Source of the DNA: an uncultured Pseudomonadota bacterium | GTDB lineage: Bacteria; UBA10199; JADFYH01 | DNA length: 36,929 nt | Direction: 5' to 3' | Assembly (NCBI GenBank): GCA_964457215.1 | Contig: CAYWGE010000001.1 | Coordinates: 1 to 36,929, forward strand | Shown here: piece after piece, positions 4,854-35,292 of the stretch | Layout: the number at the start of each line of letters is the position of its first letter | How positions within the stretch are numbered: position 1 is the first letter of the stretch | The notes under the pieces: generated by a model | What the model was told of the DNA's origin: nothing | What the model saw: the letters and a program-made list of their open reading frames with translations, nothing else | Database searches by the model: none | Translations under genes and position numbers: made by a program

Positions 4854-5008
4854 TAAATCAGAGTTGTGAATTTTTATTTTTCAAAGTGCCTGAGCGATCC
4901 TTAAAACATCGCCATCTAATAAAATCCGCTTCAGCGGCTTGTACCGTTGTTGGATGGCGATTCAAAACTGCGAGTTTTTGAAAAATAAAAATTCACAACT
5001 CTGATTTA
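4854..5008. repeat. Perfect 32-bp inverted repeat (4854-4885 / 4977-5008) enclosing a 91-nt core that has its own nested stems
   Basis: TAAATCAGAGTTGTGAATTTTTATTTTTCAAA and its exact reverse complement were read directly from the sequence. Inner complementary pairs are ATCGCCATC (4908-4916) with GATGGCGAT (4953-4961), and CCGC (4926-4929) with GCGG (4934-4937). The element fills the mraY-murD spacer. Confidence 0.85.
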
Positions 5009-6132: not shown

Positions 6133-7518
6133 TCACACAGCCCCAAATTTTCCTTTAATTTTTTCTGTCACCTTTTCCATTTGAGCGCCACGCGAACCTT
6201 TTATCAACAAATATTGCGCTAAAGGGGTCCATTCCATAATTTTTCCAAGGACTTCATCTTGAGAGGTCGCTGCCACACCATGCAAAGCAGGCATCCCACC
6301 CTCTAAAGCCCCTTTCAAAACATCTTGGGCATAGGGACCCACCGCAATCAAAAATCCAATTTTATTTTTTGCAACCGATTGCCCGACCTGCCGGTGACCT
6401 TCGGAAACAAAATCCCCCAACTCTTTCATCTCACCCAATATCGCTAAACCGGGAGCTTTGCCTTTTAAACTGGCTAAAGTTTCTAAAGCTAAATCCATTG
6501 AAGAAGGGTTGGCATTATAACAATCATTCAAAATCACAATCTGATTTTTAAGCAGAATTTTTTCCATTCTCAGGGCTCGAGCCTGAAAAGTCTGTAGGCC
6601 TTTTTGAATTTCTTTGGCCTCCAAGCCCAAACCAAACCCTGCAGCAACCGCCGCCAAAACATTGCGCACCGCTGTTTTACCTAAAGCTGGGCAAGTAAAC
6701 GAATAAGCTTTCCCCAAATAACTCACCTCAAGCTCCACCCCTTTTTCGGTTAAACGAAATGCCGTGCAAGAAACATTCGCAGGGTTTTCGAGTCCAAAAG
6801 TAAAACGAAAGGCTCGGCTGGTCATTTTACAGAGATAAGGATCATCGATATTCACGAGCGCCAACGCCCCTGAAGGAAGCTTTTCGAATAATTCCCCTTC
6901 GGCACGCGCAACGCCTTCTAGATCTTTTAATTTTTCAAGGTGCTCAAACCCAATATTCGTAATCAAACCCGCCGTAGGCTCTGCAATTTCGGTGAGCCGG
7001 GCGAGCTCTCCAAAATCATTCATCCCCATTTCGATGACGGCAGCTTCGTGATTTTCTAATTTGAGCAGCATTTTAGGAACCCCAATTAAATTATTGAGGT
7101 TTCCTTCAGTCACTAAGGTTTTATAACGAGCACCCAAAACGAGGCCCGTCATATCTTTCGTAGTAGTTTTTCCGTTGCTTCCCGCGATTGCCAAAAGAGG
7201 AATTTTAAATTTTCTGCGCCAGGCATTCGCAATATCTCCGTAAGCTTTTAAAGTATCGGTAACTTCAATTAACGCGATCGACGCCGGGATATTTCCGGCC
7301 CAATGTGCTTTTTGAACAATAATTGCCAAAGGTTTTTTTGAAGTGAGCTCTTCAATAAAGCGATGCCCATCAAATTTTTCTCCAATTAAACATAAAAAAG
7401 CTTCTCCCGCTTGAAATGTGCGACTATCGGTCGAAATAGAGCGAACTATTTCATGAGAATTACCTTGAATGAGTTGCCCACGGCTTGCTTCTAAAATTTC
7501 TTGAATACTGAGTTTCAA
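6133..7518 (-). CDS. murF: UDP-N-acetylmuramoyl-tripeptide--D-alanyl-D-alanine ligase MurF
   Basis: It has the Mur ligase P-loop (GSNGKTTTKDM). It lies between murE and mraY, with a 4-nt overlap with murE. Confidence 0.9.
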   Translation of the reverse strand: MKLSIQEILEASRGQLIQGNSHEIVRSISTDSRTFQAGEAFLCLIGEKFDGHRFIEELTSKKPLAIIVQKAHWAGNIPASIALIEVTDTLKAYGDIANAWRRKFKIPLLAIAGSNGKTTTKDMTGLVLGARYKTLVTEGNLNNLIGVPKMLLKLENHEAAVIEMGMNDFGELARLTEIAEPTAGLITNIGFEHLEKLKDLEGVARAEGELFEKLPSGALALVNIDDPYLCKMTSRAFRFTFGLENPANVSCTAFRLTEKGVELEVSYLGKAYSFTCPALGKTAVRNVLAAVAAGFGLGLEAKEIQKGLQTFQARALRMEKILLKNQIVILNDCYNANPSSMDLALETLASLKGKAPGLAILGEMKELGDFVSEGHRQVGQSVAKNKIGFLIAVGPYAQDVLKGALEGGMPALHGVAATSQDEVLGKIMEWTPLAQYLLIKGSRGAQMEKVTEKIKGKFGAV

Positions 7519-23045: not shown

Positions 23046-24026
23046 CTACAAATTTGTATACACACCCTTTAATAAATCTTCTGCCTTTGGCATTGGCTGA
23101 CTAGCGGCCCAAGTCGTTGCTTCGTTCATTTCTTTTTTTAACTTTTCGACTAATTTTTTTTCTTTCTCATCATTCCAAATTTTCATTTTTTCGAGACGCG
23201 CCCGCATCACGCTTAAAGGATCTTTCTTTTTCCAAAAATCTTTTTCGTCCTGAGGAATATAATTTGCGGGGTCATGCGTGCCATGTCCAGCGGCCCGGAA
23301 ACTTTTACATTCAATTAAGGTGGGCCCTCCTCCCTGACGCGCTTTATCCACGGCAGGTTTTACAGCTTCATAAACCGCAACCACATCATTACCGTCACAC
23401 ACTTTCCCATCAAAACCATAAGCTTTTGCGCGATCTGCTAAATTTTCAACCGCACTTTGTTCCCTAACCGGAGTCGAAATAGCCCAACCATTGTTATTCA
23501 GTACAAAAACAACAGGGAGTTTAAAAATCGCTGCATAGTTCATAGCCTCATGCACGCAACCTTGACTCGATGCTCCGTCTCCAAACAAAGCCATGACAAT
23601 TGATTTTTCTTTTTTATAGCGCGCGGCCCACGCCAAGCCATTCGCCACCACCAAATTTGCCCCCATGTGACTGACAAATCCTAAAATATTTTTTTTCTCA
23701 TAAGAAAAATGGATATTGGAATCTCTGCCTTGAGTCATTCCTGTTGCACGGTTAAAATATTGCGCAAAAATTTCGGCAGGAGAAACGCCGCGGATCAAAT
23801 GGAGCCCCATATCACGATGGGAAGGTGCTACCCAATCTTCGGGTTTAAGGGTTAAAGCAGCTCCTACAGAAATTGCCTCTTGACCTGTGGAGAGATAACC
23901 TTTTCCGATAATGAGGGGGCGTTCCGGATTTTGACTGTGATAAAGATAGGCAATCTGATCTTCCAAAGCACGGGTGCGATGGAGAGCATTATACATCTCG
24001 AGCAGCGTGCCTGCGTCGAGTACCAT
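23046..24026 (-). CDS. 2-oxoacid dehydrogenase E1 component, alpha subunit (TPP-dependent). The sequence does not decide among pyruvate, branched-chain and acetoin specificity
   Basis: It has the TPP-binding motif GDGASSQG...NNNGWAIS. Its size and its order ahead of E1-beta and E2 also fit. Confidence 0.88.
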   Translation of the reverse strand: MVLDAGTLLEMYNALHRTRALEDQIAYLYHSQNPERPLIIGKGYLSTGQEAISVGAALTLKPEDWVAPSHRDMGLHLIRGVSPAEIFAQYFNRATGMTQGRDSNIHFSYEKKNILGFVSHMGANLVVANGLAWAARYKKEKSIVMALFGDGASSQGCVHEAMNYAAIFKLPVVFVLNNNGWAISTPVREQSAVENLADRAKAYGFDGKVCDGNDVVAVYEAVKPAVDKARQGGGPTLIECKSFRAAGHGTHDPANYIPQDEKDFWKKKDPLSVMRARLEKMKIWNDEKEKKLVEKLKKEMNEATTWAASQPMPKAEDLLKGVYTNL

Positions 24027-24119
24027 GGTTTCCGACTCCTATTTCTGGTTTTTGCTCGCCTCTGACGGACTAACACCGCTTCCGCGTCCATGCCCTAGGG
24101 TATGCCCGGACTTGGTCAT
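24027..24119 (-). promoter_or_regulatory. Structured GC-rich 5' leader of the E1alpha operon: a single copy of the module that is repeated at 34230-34560
   Basis: The minus strand reads ATGACCAAGTCCGGGCATACCCTAGGGCATGGACGCGGAAGCGGTG...AAACCAGAAATAGGAGTCGGAAACC-ATG. It aligns with 34423-34563 at both module and tail level. The extended -10 TGTTAGAAT (24134-24126) lies just upstream. Confidence 0.6.
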
Positions 24120-24363
24120 GCACTTATTCTAACAAAAACAGTCGATTTGATTAAAGAAATATAAAAAAAGTTCTGCAAATTAATGATTTGCTTCCCTCAT
24201 TTAATTAGTTTATCTTTTTAGCCCTAAAATAGAGTTATTTCGAAGTTTTACCCTTACCTTAAGGGATTTAAAGCTGGGTCTCCTTCTATTATAGCTAACC
24301 ATATGAAAGAAGGCATTGCCTGGAAAATCTTATAAACTATTAAAATTAAAGGTTTTTCAGACA

Positions 24364-31444: not shown

Positions 31445-34231
31445 ATGGAGAAAGCACTCTTAAACCGTGAAACATTTCTTGCAGCGCCTCTGTCGCATGT
31501 GGCGAAACCGTTTTCTGTTGCATGCTTCATACTAACCATTTTTTTTATTCTTTCTTTTTTTAGCTCTTCGGCAAAGGCAGCAAAAATAAACCCTAATTCT
31601 AGTCCTGAAATTATCAACCAAATCGAAATTCACAATCAACTACCCAAAAAAATTCCGGATATCGAAGCAGTAATGCGTTTAAAAGTAGGGGATGTTTTTG
31701 ATCAATCGAAACTTGAAAATGCCATTGAAGATTTACGAAAATGGGGGGTTTTTAAAAATGTAGAAGTTTTGGTGAGACACGAGGGAAATAAAGTAGATTT
31801 AGATTTTCAACTTGAAGACGCCTACCTCATCAAAGATGTCGAAATTCATGGGAACTTTCCTCTATTAGAAAAAAAAATTAAACGCGCCATTTTTCTTTCG
31901 CCAGGGGATATTTACGATAGAACACGTATTCCAGAACAAGTTGATCGCCTCCTCTCCTTTTACGAAAAAGCTGGCTACAAAGGCACAGTCATTTTCATTG
32001 AAGAGAATTTAGACGAGCAAAATCATGTGGCGACTTTAGAAATTCATATCCAAAAAGGAAAAGATTATCGTGTGGGTGAAGTAGAGGTAAAAGGAAATAC
32101 AATCTTTAAAGATAGTCGAATCGCAAATAAAGTAAGCCGTGTTTTTGGTTACAGCCCGGATCGCCTTAAACAAGATATAAAAAACATTCAATCGCTCTAT
32201 CGTGATGAAGATTATCCCCGAGCCCGAGTCAAAATAGTCGACACAGAATTTGACGAACAAAAACGCAAAGTAAATTTTACTTTGGAAATTCGAGAAGGCA
32301 AACAAATCGATGTTTTATTTGAGGGGAACAAACACCAATGGAGTAAAAATCTTAAAAAAGTAGTGGATATCCCTAAGAATGGAGACACCGATGATATTGA
32401 ACTTGAACGCGCTAAAACCCAACTGATTCAACACTATAATAGTTTAGGCTACGACGAAGTAACCGTAAGCTATAAAAAACAAAAAGTAGGCGATAAAAAA
32501 ATCGTAGTTACTTTTTTTATTCAAGAAGGCCCCAAGCACACCATTAAATCGATTGATTTTGAGGGTAATAAAAACATTTCGGCAAAAAAATTACGCGAAC
32601 AAATGCAGACGCAAGAAGAGTCCTTTGAAAATCCAGCGAGCGTGTTCCTAGAAAACGTTTTTAAACAAGATTTAGAAACCATCACATCTTTTTACGAAAA
32701 AAATGGTTTTCTCGAGGCCAAAGTAGCCGATTGGAAGAAATCGCTCAATGCGACACAAGATAAATACCTCATCAATATTCAGATCAAAGAAGACAAACAA
32801 ACCTTTGTAGAATTTATAAAATTTCAAGGGCTCAAAGCTTTTAAAGAAAGTGAAATTCGAAAATTTTTATTGGTAAAAGAAAATCAACCCTATGAAACTC
32901 CAAAGCTTGAACAAGATGTAAAAGCTATTCTAATTTATTATGCAAACCATGGTTACCCCTATGCTCAAGTCAAAACCGATCTTTCTCATCCGAGTAGTGA
33001 AAAAGTAGGGGTTACTTATCAGATTGAAGAAGGCCCTTCTGCTAAAATTGGCAAAATTTTAATCGTCGGAAATTTACTTACAAAGCGCTCCGCTATTTTA
33101 AATGCACTGCGGTTCAAAGAAGGAAGCGTTTTTAATCCTCAAAAAATTTTAGAGAGTCAAACCTCGTTACGAAAATTAGGCATCTTTGATTCTCTCACTC
33201 TTGAAACTCTGGGCTTGAAAGGACAAGAATCGGTTGTTCATGTCGTTGTGCGAGTGGAAGAAAAGAAACCTGTCGAAATTGATCTAGGTTTTTCTTACGA
33301 CACTGATACCAGCTTTAAAGCGAAAATGGCTTATACCCGCCGCAATCTTTTCGGGATGGGAAAGCAATTCAACTTAAATCTTACGGGCGGCCCTCTATAC
33401 GACCGAGCGGAAGTCGACTTCACCGACCCTCGTTTTTTTGGCACAGACTGGAAACATCTCGACAGTGTATATGCCATGTATGAGAGTCGTACTTTCTTTA
33501 CAGATGTTCAACTCGGCGGCTCCGTCGGACTCTTTCGAGAACTTACTCGTCATCTTTCAATGGTCATTCGTTACGATTTAATTCGAACCGATTTTCTCGA
33601 AGAAAAAACCGATTTCTCGGAACTTCGACCCGGCACTCAAGACAACACGACAGGTAAATTAGAATATTCCGTCACATATGATCGGAGAGATAATTTTGGC
33701 GACCCACATTCCGGCTTTTACACGGTAGGACGTGTTGATTTTGGAACGCAGTTTGAAGGACTCGATGCTCATTTTTTCGAAACCGGTGCGAGCTTTGGAT
33801 ATTGGTGGTCCCCCTCGCCTATCTCGCGATTTACAATTTCAAATAGCCTTCGTTTCGCAACCGTTTTTCCTTTCTCGAAGGGAGTGAATATTCCCACTCA
33901 AGAACTTATTTTCATGGGAGGTGATGATACTGTCCGAGGATTTAGACAAGACGGCTTAAATCCTGCGGGAGGAAAAGTGGGAATTATTTACAATCTTGAA
34001 TTCATTATTCGTCTCTTCAAAGGATTTCAACTCGCAGGCTTCTTAGACAGTGGCAGCGATACCAATACGTTTGGAGAGATTGGTCCTTCTTCTTTCAGGC
34101 ACGCCGCAGGCCCCAGCATTCGTTATGCCACCCCCGTGGGACCCCTTCGAGTCGATTACGGCATTGTACTCGACCCTCAAGCTGGGGAAGATACCCAGCG
34201 TCTTCACATCAGCTTCGGCTACTTTTTCTGA
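31445..34231 (+). CDS. bamA: Omp85-family outer-membrane protein assembly factor (BamA/TamA-like, multiple POTRA repeats plus a beta-barrel)
   Basis: It has repeated POTRA-like units (IKSIDFEGNKNISAKKLREQM, IEFIKFQGLKAFKESEIRKFL, IGKILIVGNLLTKRSAILNAL). The C-terminal barrel ends in ...HISFGYFF, an aromatic beta-signal. Confidence 0.85.
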   Translation: MEKALLNRETFLAAPLSHVAKPFSVACFILTIFFILSFFSSSAKAAKINPNSSPEIINQIEIHNQLPKKIPDIEAVMRLKVGDVFDQSKLENAIEDLRKWGVFKNVEVLVRHEGNKVDLDFQLEDAYLIKDVEIHGNFPLLEKKIKRAIFLSPGDIYDRTRIPEQVDRLLSFYEKAGYKGTVIFIEENLDEQNHVATLEIHIQKGKDYRVGEVEVKGNTIFKDSRIANKVSRVFGYSPDRLKQDIKNIQSLYRDEDYPRARVKIVDTEFDEQKRKVNFTLEIREGKQIDVLFEGNKHQWSKNLKKVVDIPKNGDTDDIELERAKTQLIQHYNSLGYDEVTVSYKKQKVGDKKIVVTFFIQEGPKHTIKSIDFEGNKNISAKKLREQMQTQEESFENPASVFLENVFKQDLETITSFYEKNGFLEAKVADWKKSLNATQDKYLINIQIKEDKQTFVEFIKFQGLKAFKESEIRKFLLVKENQPYETPKLEQDVKAILIYYANHGYPYAQVKTDLSHPSSEKVGVTYQIEEGPSAKIGKILIVGNLLTKRSAILNALRFKEGSVFNPQKILESQTSLRKLGIFDSLTLETLGLKGQESVVHVVVRVEEKKPVEIDLGFSYDTDTSFKAKMAYTRRNLFGMGKQFNLNLTGGPLYDRAEVDFTDPRFFGTDWKHLDSVYAMYESRTFFTDVQLGGSVGLFRELTRHLSMVIRYDLIRTDFLEEKTDFSELRPGTQDNTTGKLEYSVTYDRRDNFGDPHSGFYTVGRVDFGTQFEGLDAHFFETGASFGYWWSPSPISRFTISNSLRFATVFPFSKGVNIPTQELIFMGGDDTVRGFRQDGLNPAGGKVGIIYNLEFIIRLFKGFQLAGFLDSGSDTNTFGEIGPSSFRHAAGPSIRYATPVGPLRVDYGIVLDPQAGEDTQRLHISFGYFF

Positions 34232-34560
34232 CCGAAGCCGGGTACACACTTCAAGTGGGTGGCTGAGGGAATGGTTGAAGACGGAGTCGTAAACCATGAC
34301 CGAGACATTGTGTATACCCGAACTCTTATCCCATACACCGTCCTCGCATATGGCTAAGGAAAGCCTTAAAAATCATAACTCATTGCCAGACTCCTTATTT
34401 TTCAGTTACAATGTGGATTCGTATGACCGAAACCGGGTATACCCTTCGGGCATGGCCGAGGAAATGGTTGCGACCGAATCCGGGTGCCCCGAAAGCTTTC
34501 GGGGCGGATGAGGAAGTGGTTGTAGCCGAAGGCGGAAACCAGAAACGAGAGTTGGAAACC
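34230..34560 (+). repeat. Tandem array of about 4 GC-rich structured modules plus a conserved tail that ends at a start codon
   Basis: The modules lie at 34230-34295, 34296-34365 (degenerate), 34423-34471 and 34472-34530. Their consensus is GACCGAA-NNCC-GGGYA-[hairpin]-GGN'N'-GAGGAARTGGTTG. The six-frame ORFs here overlap one another with no consistent frame. Confidence 0.7.
34383..34412 (+). promoter_or_regulatory. Candidate sigma70-type promoter inside the module array
   Basis: TTGCCA (34383-34388), an 18-nt spacer, then TACAAT (34407-34412). This lies 10 nt upstream of the ATGACCGAA that opens module M2. The arrangement parallels the -10 element upstream of ATGACC at the E1alpha locus. 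Confidence 0.4.
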
Positions 34561-35292
34561 ATGCAAAATTTCTTAAGAAAACTAATCCAGCCTTTAGGAA
34601 AAAGTGTTGAAAAAGTAGGGGGTTGGGTAGAAAAACGCCGAAGTAAAAAACTGAGTACTCCTACTGCGCAAGAAGGAATGAAACTTCCCCCCGAGTATAC
34701 CCTTCATGCTCTAATGCAATATTTAGAAGAACGAGAAATTCGTTCGTTAATTCCAAACCTTGCAGGTAAAAAGACACTCTGCGCATCCTGGGGTGAAAAC
34801 ACCCTTTGCAATTTACTTCGCGAAAAAAAGGCCTCTCCTTTATTAATGATGGCCCCCCAAGCCGAAGAACTGGGAGAAATTTCAGAAACTACTTCTGAAC
34901 AATTTGGATTGGTAGGAAGCTTAAAAGCCGCTCCTTTTAAAAATGATTTTTTTGACTGCTCCATTATCAGCGCTTGGAATGGTAAAAACGATCTTTCCAC
35001 TTGGGTAGGAGAACTTACTCGGATTAGCCGAGATGGTTCTAGAATGGTTTTGGTATTTACTCATCCCTATCTTCAATATCTCTCCAAAACAGTTCGAAAA
35101 ATTCCTCAAGGCCTCTCACAAAATTTTATGACTCTCCGGAGAGCCGGAATTTATGTAGAAGAAATTAAAGAAGCTTTTGTGGATGAATCTGCAAAAGAAG
35201 CTCTTTCAAATATTCCCTCGACCTCGATTGAGAATTTAAAAGGCCTGCCTCTTTTAGTTTTATTCAAAGCAATCCGCCTCAAAAGGAAATAG
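34561..35292 (+). CDS. Hypothetical protein with a class-I methyltransferase-like fold and a degenerate SAM-binding motif
   Basis: I set the start at the ATG of the conserved GGAAACC-ATG junction. Methyltransferase-like blocks are present (..KKTLCASWGEN.., FDCSIISAWNG, ELTRISRDGSRMVLVF) but there is no GxGxG motif. Confidence 0.5.
   Translation: MQNFLRKLIQPLGKSVEKVGGWVEKRRSKKLSTPTAQEGMKLPPEYTLHALMQYLEEREIRSLIPNLAGKKTLCASWGENTLCNLLREKKASPLLMMAPQAEELGEISETTSEQFGLVGSLKAAPFKNDFFDCSIISAWNGKNDLSTWVGELTRISRDGSRMVLVFTHPYLQYLSKTVRKIPQGLSQNFMTLRRAGIYVEEIKEAFVDESAKEALSNIPSTSIENLKGLPLLVLFKAIRLKRK

Follow-up and report, generated by a model that had tools for sequence, protein, structure and literature searches.

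The 36,929-nt stretch analysed here (contig CAYWGE010000001.1 of assembly GCA_964457215.1, from an uncultured Pseudomonadota bacterium; hereafter the window) carries an Omp85/BamA gene (928 amino acids (aa), 31445–34231; Pfam POTRA and Omp85 domains), the interval 34230–34560 downstream of it and then a methyltransferase-like gene. The interval holds copies of a small structured repeat, the subject of the present work. Its core, GACCGAANNCGGG, was found exactly three times in the 36.9-kb window (34230, 34425 and 34472), always on the plus strand, whereas length alone would predict about 0.02 exact matches, and each core was followed by GAGGAARTGGTTG / GAGGRARTGGTTG. A diverged fourth copy (24117–24070) was present on the minus strand upstream of a 2-oxoacid dehydrogenase E1-alpha gene (23046–24026). 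The original prediction, made from the sequence alone, had described the interval as a GC-rich tandem array of one module. The modules are indeed GC-rich (0.50–0.60), but the spacer 34300–34420 is not (0.41–0.43, as in the surroundings). Likewise, the repeated module is real but is only part of the unit, as in every family member it runs on into a tail, GRAG-[3–4 bp hairpin]-GRAAACCA, and the next two bases are TG at most loci, such that the unit ends on an ATG. With the tail included, the window contained four copies, at 34229–34296, as a nested pair at 34424–34561 and at 24118–24026 on the minus strand.

The same metagenome contains a sister genome (contig Ga0172278_1437), with which we compared the window; it is syntenic here and encodes a methyltransferase-like protein of 81% and an E1-alpha of 87% identity. 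In the sister genome the element was missing at both gene sites, with the same promoters kept. At the E1-alpha site the sister reads TGtTACAAT-tggtct-ATGgtactcgac and the window TGtTAGAAT-aagtgc-A[TGACC...93 nt...AACCA]TGgtactcgac, a clean 93-nt indel. The extended −10-like box TGtTAGAAT (24126–24134, minus strand) lies 6 nt upstream of A24119; a two-hexamer promoter scan missed it, as there is no −35 box there. The element is thus placed between A24119 and the TG (24025–24024) of the E1-alpha start codon, and its own last base, A24026, now serves as the A of the working ATG. At the methyltransferase-like site the sister reads TTGCAA-18-TACAAT-atgagttcct-ATGcaaaac, and the window has the same promoter-like site (TTGCCA-18 nt-TACAAT, 34383–34412, plus strand), 10 nt from the end of the −10 box to A34423, and then A[138 nt nested elements]TGcaaaat. 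Compared with the sister genome, both gene-proximal copies are therefore clean insertions between base 1 and base 2 of a start codon. The sister −10 boxes are located 6 nt (E1-alpha) and 10 nt (methyltransferase-like gene) before the ATG, indicating that both targets were leaderless or near-leaderless genes. Furthermore, a covariance model of the element matched three sites in the roughly 57 kb covered of the source genome and none in the 114 kb covered from four relatives. Neither orthologue is preceded by the element in the sister genome or in any of three further relatives. The element is multi-copy and non-coding, and shows presence/absence polymorphism.

The insertion has consequences for gene annotation. 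The methyltransferase-like gene probably starts at 34561–34563, and the sister protein begins MQNFLK at the equivalent ATG. The public gene calls corresponding to window positions 34411–35292, however, give products of 293 aa (L001, 9117–9998) and 289 aa (L002, 6472–7341). These calls open within the element array, since no stop codon separates the old ATG (34423) from the gene, whose frame it shares. The true product is probably the 243-aa protein, judging from the 244-aa sister orthologue that starts at the equivalent of ATG 34561; alternatively, translation does begin at the old start and adds 46 aa at the N-terminus. For the E1-alpha gene, the frame that begins at the old AUG reaches a stop codon 15 nt before the working AUG.

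Two further observations concern these contigs. The window sequence is also contained in a 179-kb Joint Genome Institute contig (Ga0172278_1745). In the sister genome, a sequence just after the BamA stop codon (L173, 9946–9965) reads TGAGAAAACCATCC, which resembles an element reduced to its two ends, TGA at the start and GAAAACCA at the finish, by loss of the interior; the common ancestor may therefore already have carried a copy behind BamA.

Family members and common fold

Each GTDB species was represented by one genome in a scan with a degenerate pattern derived from the four window copies. As the original prediction had proposed, a covariance model and a wider search were used, and these brought out the family in other metagenome-assembled genomes (MAGs) and in metagenomes. 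True copies were found in at least 13 MAGs and in metagenome contigs. A MAG labelled Chlamydiae (JACPWU01) carried at least seven loci. Among the matches listed, the other carriers were labelled Elusimicrobia (JACQJN01, JACQJO01, CAYLZQ01 and CAYJXJ01), Omnitrophota (JACPXL01), Deltaproteobacteria (JACPFG01), ‘Pseudomonadota’ (CAZWYB01, CAYLKF01, CAYYFU01, CAZKUY01 and CAYPXN01) and unclassified bacterium (DASUFF01), a phylum-level spread that rests on the record labels. Soil and groundwater contigs added about 18 further copies (about 18 of the 55 metagenome matches were true members), with a pattern that demanded a tail spacer of at least 9 nt and thus missed the commonest, 8-nt tail. Copy numbers per genome from the genome scan are lower bounds, and many matches in high-GC genomes arose by chance. 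Within a MAG at least 4–8 copies, hairpin-forming and extragenic, were seen in partial data, and near-identical copies stood before unrelated genes inside one MAG (L061, L103 and L109, as well as at least seven in JACPWU01). The first covariance model (R1) recovered copies at 45–99 bits.

Rfam 15 gave no match at the gathering thresholds for the whole window, and nothing relevant at E≤10 around both loci or for a canonical family member. No matches to the element were obtained in plasmids (72,556), phage records (50,697) or IMG/VR viral contigs, and a literature search, including the literal sequence, found no description of it. The homologues of the window E1-alpha were labelled ‘Deltaproteobacteria bacterium’ and came from RIFCSP/CG MAGs. 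The element seems to occur only in uncultured lineages of groundwater and soil, a possible reason why no description was found.

The structure was worked out on a covariance-model alignment of 52 distinct copies (A3). The unit, 5′-YGACC...AACCA-3′, is 68–93 nt long, and where it abuts a gene the downstream AUG takes its A from the last base of the unit. It folds into two hairpins. Stem I is irregular, [flank R]-Y-G.A-A.R-CC-R.M-A.G followed by helix P2, a GGGY bulge and a variable helix P3, with the pair order A-U, U-A or C-G, G.A, A.R, C-G, C-G, G.A or A.C, A.G and then P2, the NNCC/GGNN helix noticed originally. Stem II is GGUU-GRA-[small hairpin]-GRA-AACC. Two pairs of columns carry the register of stem I: columns 4/63 were U-A in 33 copies and C-G in 19, and columns 9/58 were G.A in 34 copies and A.C in 18, both with zero exceptions, columns 3 and 4 having been free in both search patterns and column 63 limited to A/G. 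The covariation at 4/63 sets AUGACCRA opposite GMGGRARU. The closing helix GACC/GGTT, which had been proposed originally and was used in model R1, was dropped on this ground. In the new register GGUU is free to pair with the AACC of the tail, and the GGA purines, previously taken as single-stranded, lie mostly in tandem G.A pairs.

Standard pairs occupied 98.5% of the pair cells, compared with 35–51% when the partners were slid, and 13 pairs had changed on both sides, values that 0 of 500 shuffles reached; these values come from 52 related copies, aligned with a model in which P2, P3 and the tail hairpin were already built in. The claim that compensatory changes mark a selected fold was thus strongly confirmed. 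Minimum free energy (MFE) folds gave the same two hairpins independently (z-scores −1.3 to −3.9), and lengthened stem II so that it takes in the start-codon A and U. R63-U64 therefore has alternative partners, either the 5′ flank plus Y4 or the AU of the real start codon. At column 3/64, where the search patterns limited column 64 to C/T (genome scan) or T (metagenome scan), 20 pairs were G.U, which would be C.A on the opposite strand, showing that the fold is specific to the sense strand. The loop of the tail hairpin was variable (GGA, GGCA, GAGA, GAAA, GUA or GCGA), and the other GGAs were paired within stem I.

In the window, the individual hairpins and the helices AGCC/GGCT, ATCC/GGAT and GTCC/GGAC were found where they had been described. 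Copy 1 (34229–34296, plus strand) matched the covariance model over 34226–34305 (86.1 bits, E=3e-22), and its MFE fold consisted of two hairpins: stem I (34228/9–34272) and stem II (34273–34295; GGUU-GAA-GAC GGA GUC-GUA-AACC), with the terminal A at 34296. The stop codon TGA of Omp85/BamA (34229–34231) forms its first three bases. The end of copy 1 reads ...AACCA|TGACC, and a short fragment, TGACCGAGACATTGTGTATACCC (34297–34320, plus strand), resembles the 5′ end of a further copy; what had been counted as a fifth module (34297 to about 34320) is this short fragment only. The ATG at 34296–98 opens only a 71-codon frame through the next copies, which is probably not a gene. The 5′ part of the outer copy of the nested pair (34424–34470, plus strand) comprises stem I and GGUUG, with flank A34423 paired to U34465 and a degenerate P2 (AACC/GGCC), the same helix that the original prediction had singled out as broken. 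The inner copy (34471–34541, plus strand; match 34468–34550, 75.2 bits) lies inside the outer stem II between G34470 and G34542. Its stem I holds the 20-nt palindrome and its stem II is GGUU-GUA-GCC GAA GGC-GGA-AACC-A. The 3′ part of the outer copy (34542–34561, plus strand), GA-AAC GAGA GUU-GGA-AACC-A, supplies A34561, the A of the start codon. Copy 4 (24026–24118, minus strand; match 24017–24121(−), 37.6 bits, E=4e-8) is a diverged 93-nt unit with two tails, extending the module originally placed at 24086–24111. Its second tail has decayed, leaving AGGAG free 9 nt before the AUG.

Several other structures were considered. A kink-turn, loop E/sarcin–ricin motif and hammerhead, hairpin, twister or hepatitis delta virus ribozyme did not fit by eye and Rfam gave nothing, and a type III toxin–antitoxin (ToxI-like) array and CRISPR were ruled out on context. 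A coding repeat or leader peptide (MTE(S/T)G...) was rejected too, as the variable positions are compensatory and the distance between the two AUGs (62–93 nt) falls in all three frames; the stop positions of the upstream frames showed no significant pattern.

Boundaries, targets and downstream genes

One boundary parse, YGACC...AACCA, fitted all of the insertion contexts (A|TG, G|GA and TTA|TAA). Under this parse the element has no terminal inverted repeats, as the 5′ end (YGACCRAG) and the reverse complement of the 3′ end (TGGTTTCC) have only TG in common, and no target-site duplication. The appearance of ATG...ATG arises because the element begins with TG and ends with A. A 3-nt ATG target duplication was rejected, since the GTG-flanked, nested and palindrome copies fit the YGACC...AACCA boundary only.

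Nested copies support the same boundaries. In eight nested or tandem arrays from different genomes, including the window, deletion of an inner YGRCC...AACC(A/G) restored the canonical outer stem II, GGTTG|GAG...GRAAACC, with one fixed insertion point. Thus the second and third modules of the window represent one element (34471–34541) nested in another (34424–34470 plus 34542–34561). Nested insertion gives tandem A-A-B-B arrays; arrays were direct or nested, and not inverted doublets. A different target was used in JACPWU01, in which at least seven near-identical copies occupied the centre of the palindrome CTCCCCTTA|TAAGGGGAG, most of them upstream of genes in sense orientation. At these loci (L029, L034, L047, L053, L064, L067 and L104) the element sits within a larger C-rich/G-rich palindrome repeat, TTAACTCCCCCAACCCCTCTT...AAGAGGGGAGAAAC CTCCCCTTA | TAAGGGGAGnTGGAGGGGTTA, which appears to be a REP (repetitive extragenic palindromic)-like family of its own. 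The flank base was a purine in 49 of the 52 copies and pairs with U64, and no single target word emerged. Elements of the T-class (U4-A63) were mostly on A|TG, and those of the C-class (C4-G63) mostly nested or in palindromes. This correlation between Y4/R63 class and target hints at guide-like target recognition, although no rule could be derived.

More than half of the copies (28 of 52) ended in A+TG, and 24 of these opened a long open reading frame (ORF) or ran off the locus. The ORFs had normal N-termini, and the copies at start codons lay in sense orientation. A table of the downstream genes, which had been suggested originally, showed that their functions are unrelated: the products included GAPDH (MARKIGINGFGRIGR), TatA, HisG, LysC (aspartate kinase), LpxD, RF2 (prfB) and MtnA, as well as TetR regulators, a ribbon–helix–helix antitoxin, an ATP-binding cassette ATPase, an aldehyde dehydrogenase, a response regulator and the E1-alpha (pyruvate dehydrogenase) of the window. 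Such diversity rules out a pathway-specific riboswitch. The copy before prfB (L007, about 7240–7322, minus strand) showed that the element is tolerated ahead of an autoregulated essential gene; the programmed +1 frameshift site of this prfB, the classic CTT TGA C, occurs 23 codons into the gene.

Two copies preceded tRNA genes (L094 and L136). In L136 (18–191) at least three head-to-tail 54-nt reduced units (ATGACCGGGACATCGGAGCCGAGGAAATGGTTGGAGGGCGTTAGCCCGGAAACC) lie about 16 nt upstream of the tRNA gene, and in L094 the copy lies about 55 nt upstream of a tRNA-like sequence. TANNNT boxes were found 4–10 nt upstream of the flank base in 12 of 33 cases, against about six expected. At L027 and L046 the flank was G instead of A, on would-be GTG starts that now read ATG. 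In L119 the element precedes a leader with its own AGGAGG, as would be expected if the insertion target were a transcription start and not the start codon itself. GGAG was often present 9–20 nt upstream of the rebuilt AUG.

Mobility, function and alternative explanations

We favour, on balance, the explanation that the repeats are a small, non-autonomous, structure-dependent mobile element that also serves as a portable 5′ leader. After insertion at a leaderless gene the element would make up the entire 5′ untranslated region (UTR). Stem I would pair up the former 5′-terminal AUG, and stem II would present the rebuilt AUG, often with GGAG upstream, so that the gene would stay expressed while its leaderless mRNA became a structured, leadered one. 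The two AUGs would compete for one partner, R63-U64. Through this competition the RNA might also regulate; it might stabilize the 5′ end, or be cleaved. Mobility probably proceeds via a folded single strand, of the HUH type or attC type, as suggested by the lack of inverted terminal repeats and target duplication, the strand-specific G.U pairs, the extrahelical bases and the unwound or hairpin targets. What the targets (the promoter +1/+2 junction, hairpin apex and internal loop) may have in common is unwound DNA.

A bolder form of this proposal is possible, and we put it forward only tentatively. The repeats would represent a new structure-guided class of mobile element that integrates at the promoter +1/+2 junction, i.e. 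into the single-stranded DNA of the transcription bubble, and into hairpin loops, and hence inside start codons where leaderless genes abound. Its RNA would hide the old AUG and rebuild a new one, and would then act as a compact Shine–Dalgarno (SD)-independent or internal ribosome entry site-like platform, or be cleaved at ...AACC|AUG back to a leaderless mRNA. It would then be at once a natural portable 5′ UTR and a transposon with specificity for transcription starts, of which none is known to us from bacteria.

Several points weigh against the favoured explanation. No transposase, recombinase or autonomous parent was found in the 8-kb stretches around each match, and a pattern search of the same stretches found no stem I parted from its stem II by a gene. 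About 45% of the copies are off any ATG, and no one target rule covers A|TG, G|GA and TTA|TAA. The leaderless status of the targets comes from the −10 spacing and not from mapped 5′ ends, and gain in the source genome is not strictly separable from precise loss in the sister. GGAG is not universal, as GAAG and GUAG also occur. With regard to the fold, the invariant GGUU/AACC has no covariation support and might serve as a site for a protein or for recombination instead of forming a helix; several conserved positions were fixed in both search patterns, so that conservation there is partly circular; and covariation in a mobile family may reflect transposition competence rather than RNA function, with RNA and folded single-stranded DNA not separable.

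The strongest rival is that the element is a purely selfish dispersed repeat, like REPs, miniature transposable elements with inverted repeats (MITEs) or palindrome-associated transposable elements (PATEs), with no role at the RNA level. The hairpins would be a transposition substrate only, and insertions at start codons would survive as harmless because they rebuild the ATG. The presence and absence between sisters, the identical copies within genomes and the nested insertions all agree with this explanation, as do the JACPWU01 copies, which lie in palindromes and not on ATGs, and the reading frame from the 5′ AUG, which is not conserved. However, neutral survival predicts intergenic copies in either orientation, whereas about half abut true start codons in sense. 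The copies ahead of essential genes mean that translation from a fully structured leader is at least permitted, and the end of the element regenerates an ATG even at GTG starts. We consider a purely selfish repeat doubtful. Among the three classes named in the original prediction, a REP/MITE-like family came closest, as the element is dispersed, multi-copy and evidently mobile, but it has neither the inverted repeats nor the target duplication of a MITE, and its sense orientation, tied to 5′ ends and start codons, is not that of a plain REP scattered at random.

A second rival is a host-beneficial cis-regulatory leader (a translational operator, a thermometer or a site for a lineage-specific global RNA-binding protein) that was spread by recombination and not by transposition. 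The sense orientation at 5′ ends, the well-defined internal loops (whose isosteric G.A/A.C exchange is characteristic of RNA motifs that bind proteins or ions), the alternative pairing over the AU of the start codon and a gene set as diverse as that of a global regulon would suit such a leader. We nevertheless regard it as improbable, since the element is absent at the same genes in close relatives, the nested and in-palindrome copies are hard to explain as regulation, two copies adjoin tRNA genes and no candidate protein is known.

The remaining two rivals had been suggested originally. Tandem riboswitch-like aptamers sensing a metabolite would account for the compensatory pairs, the conserved internal loops and the tandem arrangement upstream of a gene. 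They are very improbable, as there was no Rfam match at E≤10, the element is not conserved at orthologous loci and is absent from the sister sites, no pathway is common to prfB, tatA, gap, hisG, lpxD, TetR, antitoxin and tRNA genes, and the tandem form is the product of nested insertion. A CsrA/RsmA-type multi-GGA binding platform, suggested by the several GGA triplets per unit and by a subclass in which the GGA of the tail loop lies about 10 nt from the AUG, is scarcely credible, since this sole loop that is sometimes GGA varies freely and the remaining GGAs form G.A or C-G pairs of stem I, for which there is covariation support.

We compared the mobile-element explanation with known systems, of which the tandem riboswitches were tested here. 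PATEs derived from IS200/IS605 and REP/REPIN sequences (mobilized by the Y1 HUH TnpA or RAYT) are likewise short, non-coding and multi-copy, without terminal inverted repeats or target-site duplications, and have strand-specific subterminal hairpins and seamless empty sites. The pairing of the flank base and first base of our element with an internal dinucleotide also resembles the guide/cleavage-site pairing of IS608. Unlike these systems, no TnpA or RAYT gene was seen in the stretches read, the two end hairpins of the element are dissimilar and no fixed 4–5 nt target was found. REPs, moreover, typically occur at 3′ ends or in the gaps between genes and may point either way, whereas the element lies in sense on start codons.

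Integron attC sites share the conservation of structure over sequence, a paired box interrupted by an unpaired or mismatched spacer, extrahelical bases (the GGGY bulge of the element), a variable terminal hairpin, a GTT-containing motif (GGTTGRAG after the stem) and an insertion that puts the element next to a promoter. In contrast with attC, there is no R″/R′ pair (RYYYAAC/GTTRRRY), as GTTGRAG lies 3′ of stem I without a RYYYAAC partner; the neighbours are syntenic core chromosomal genes; integrase, attI and cassette array are lacking; and insertion occurs inside start codons.

The pneumococcal BOX (boxA-boxB(n)-boxC), Neisseria Correia/CREE, ERIC, mycobacterial MIRU and Rickettsia RPE repeats are also small, structured and intergenic, co-transcribed with their neighbours, modular with a variable number of modules and able to alter expression, and MIRUs overlap neighbouring genes at their stop and start codons. 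They differ from the element in that Correia has inverted repeats and a TA duplication, MIRUs are variable-number tandem repeats and RPEs are in-frame coding inserts. We know of none in this group that is nucleotide-exact at start codons or prefers leaderless genes. Helitron/IS91 elements insert between A and T without duplication, with a hairpin near the 3′ end and a target that resembles their own end, but are kilobase elements encoding Rep/Y2, with the termini TC...CTRR and not YGACC...AACCA; we are aware of no such gene or short derivative documented for the element. Tandem riboswitches such as that for glycine have repeated structured modules in a 5′ leader and covariation; the element, however, has no family match, coherent regulon or orthologous conservation, and its tandem form comes from nesting. 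By analogy, the element appears to work most like an IS200/IS605-derived or REP-type hairpin element, with an architecture that recalls attC. It lacks one or more defining features of classical MITEs, typical REPs, integron cassettes, riboswitches and CsrA leaders.

The unusual property of the element is its specificity for the start codons or transcription starts of leaderless genes. If the favoured explanation is correct, the element would exemplify, to the exact nucleotide, a family of bacterial repeats for which gene starts are the target, or the only place of survival, and which turns leaderless genes into genes with a fully structured leader. It would then bear on the evolutionary interconversion of leaderless and leadered initiation, on how ribosomes start at an AUG abutting a helix, often without a canonical SD sequence, and on the enzymes that move hairpin DNA without inverted repeats or duplications. 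In practical terms, the element misleads gene callers (289–293 aa called compared with the 243 aa of the probable true protein) and would give rise to spurious ‘riboswitch’ predictions; as a 5′ UTR cassette it is compact and has been tested in nature.

Two sequences unrelated to the element were noted in the course of the searches. The metagenome pattern also caught a highly conserved sequence, catggccccagtatCCGGGGGCGGCCCGGCGAGGGCAAGGGACAGG...GGAGGAAACC, which recurs in many ocean contigs; the contigs carrying it, from marine and other metagenomes, were L123, L132, L141, L147, L150, L151, L153–L155, L157, L160, L163 and L168, and it is probably coding. In the window itself, a perfect 32-nt inverted repeat with a 91-nt spacer (4854–4885 / 4977–5008) lies between genes, upstream of murD in the dcw cluster.

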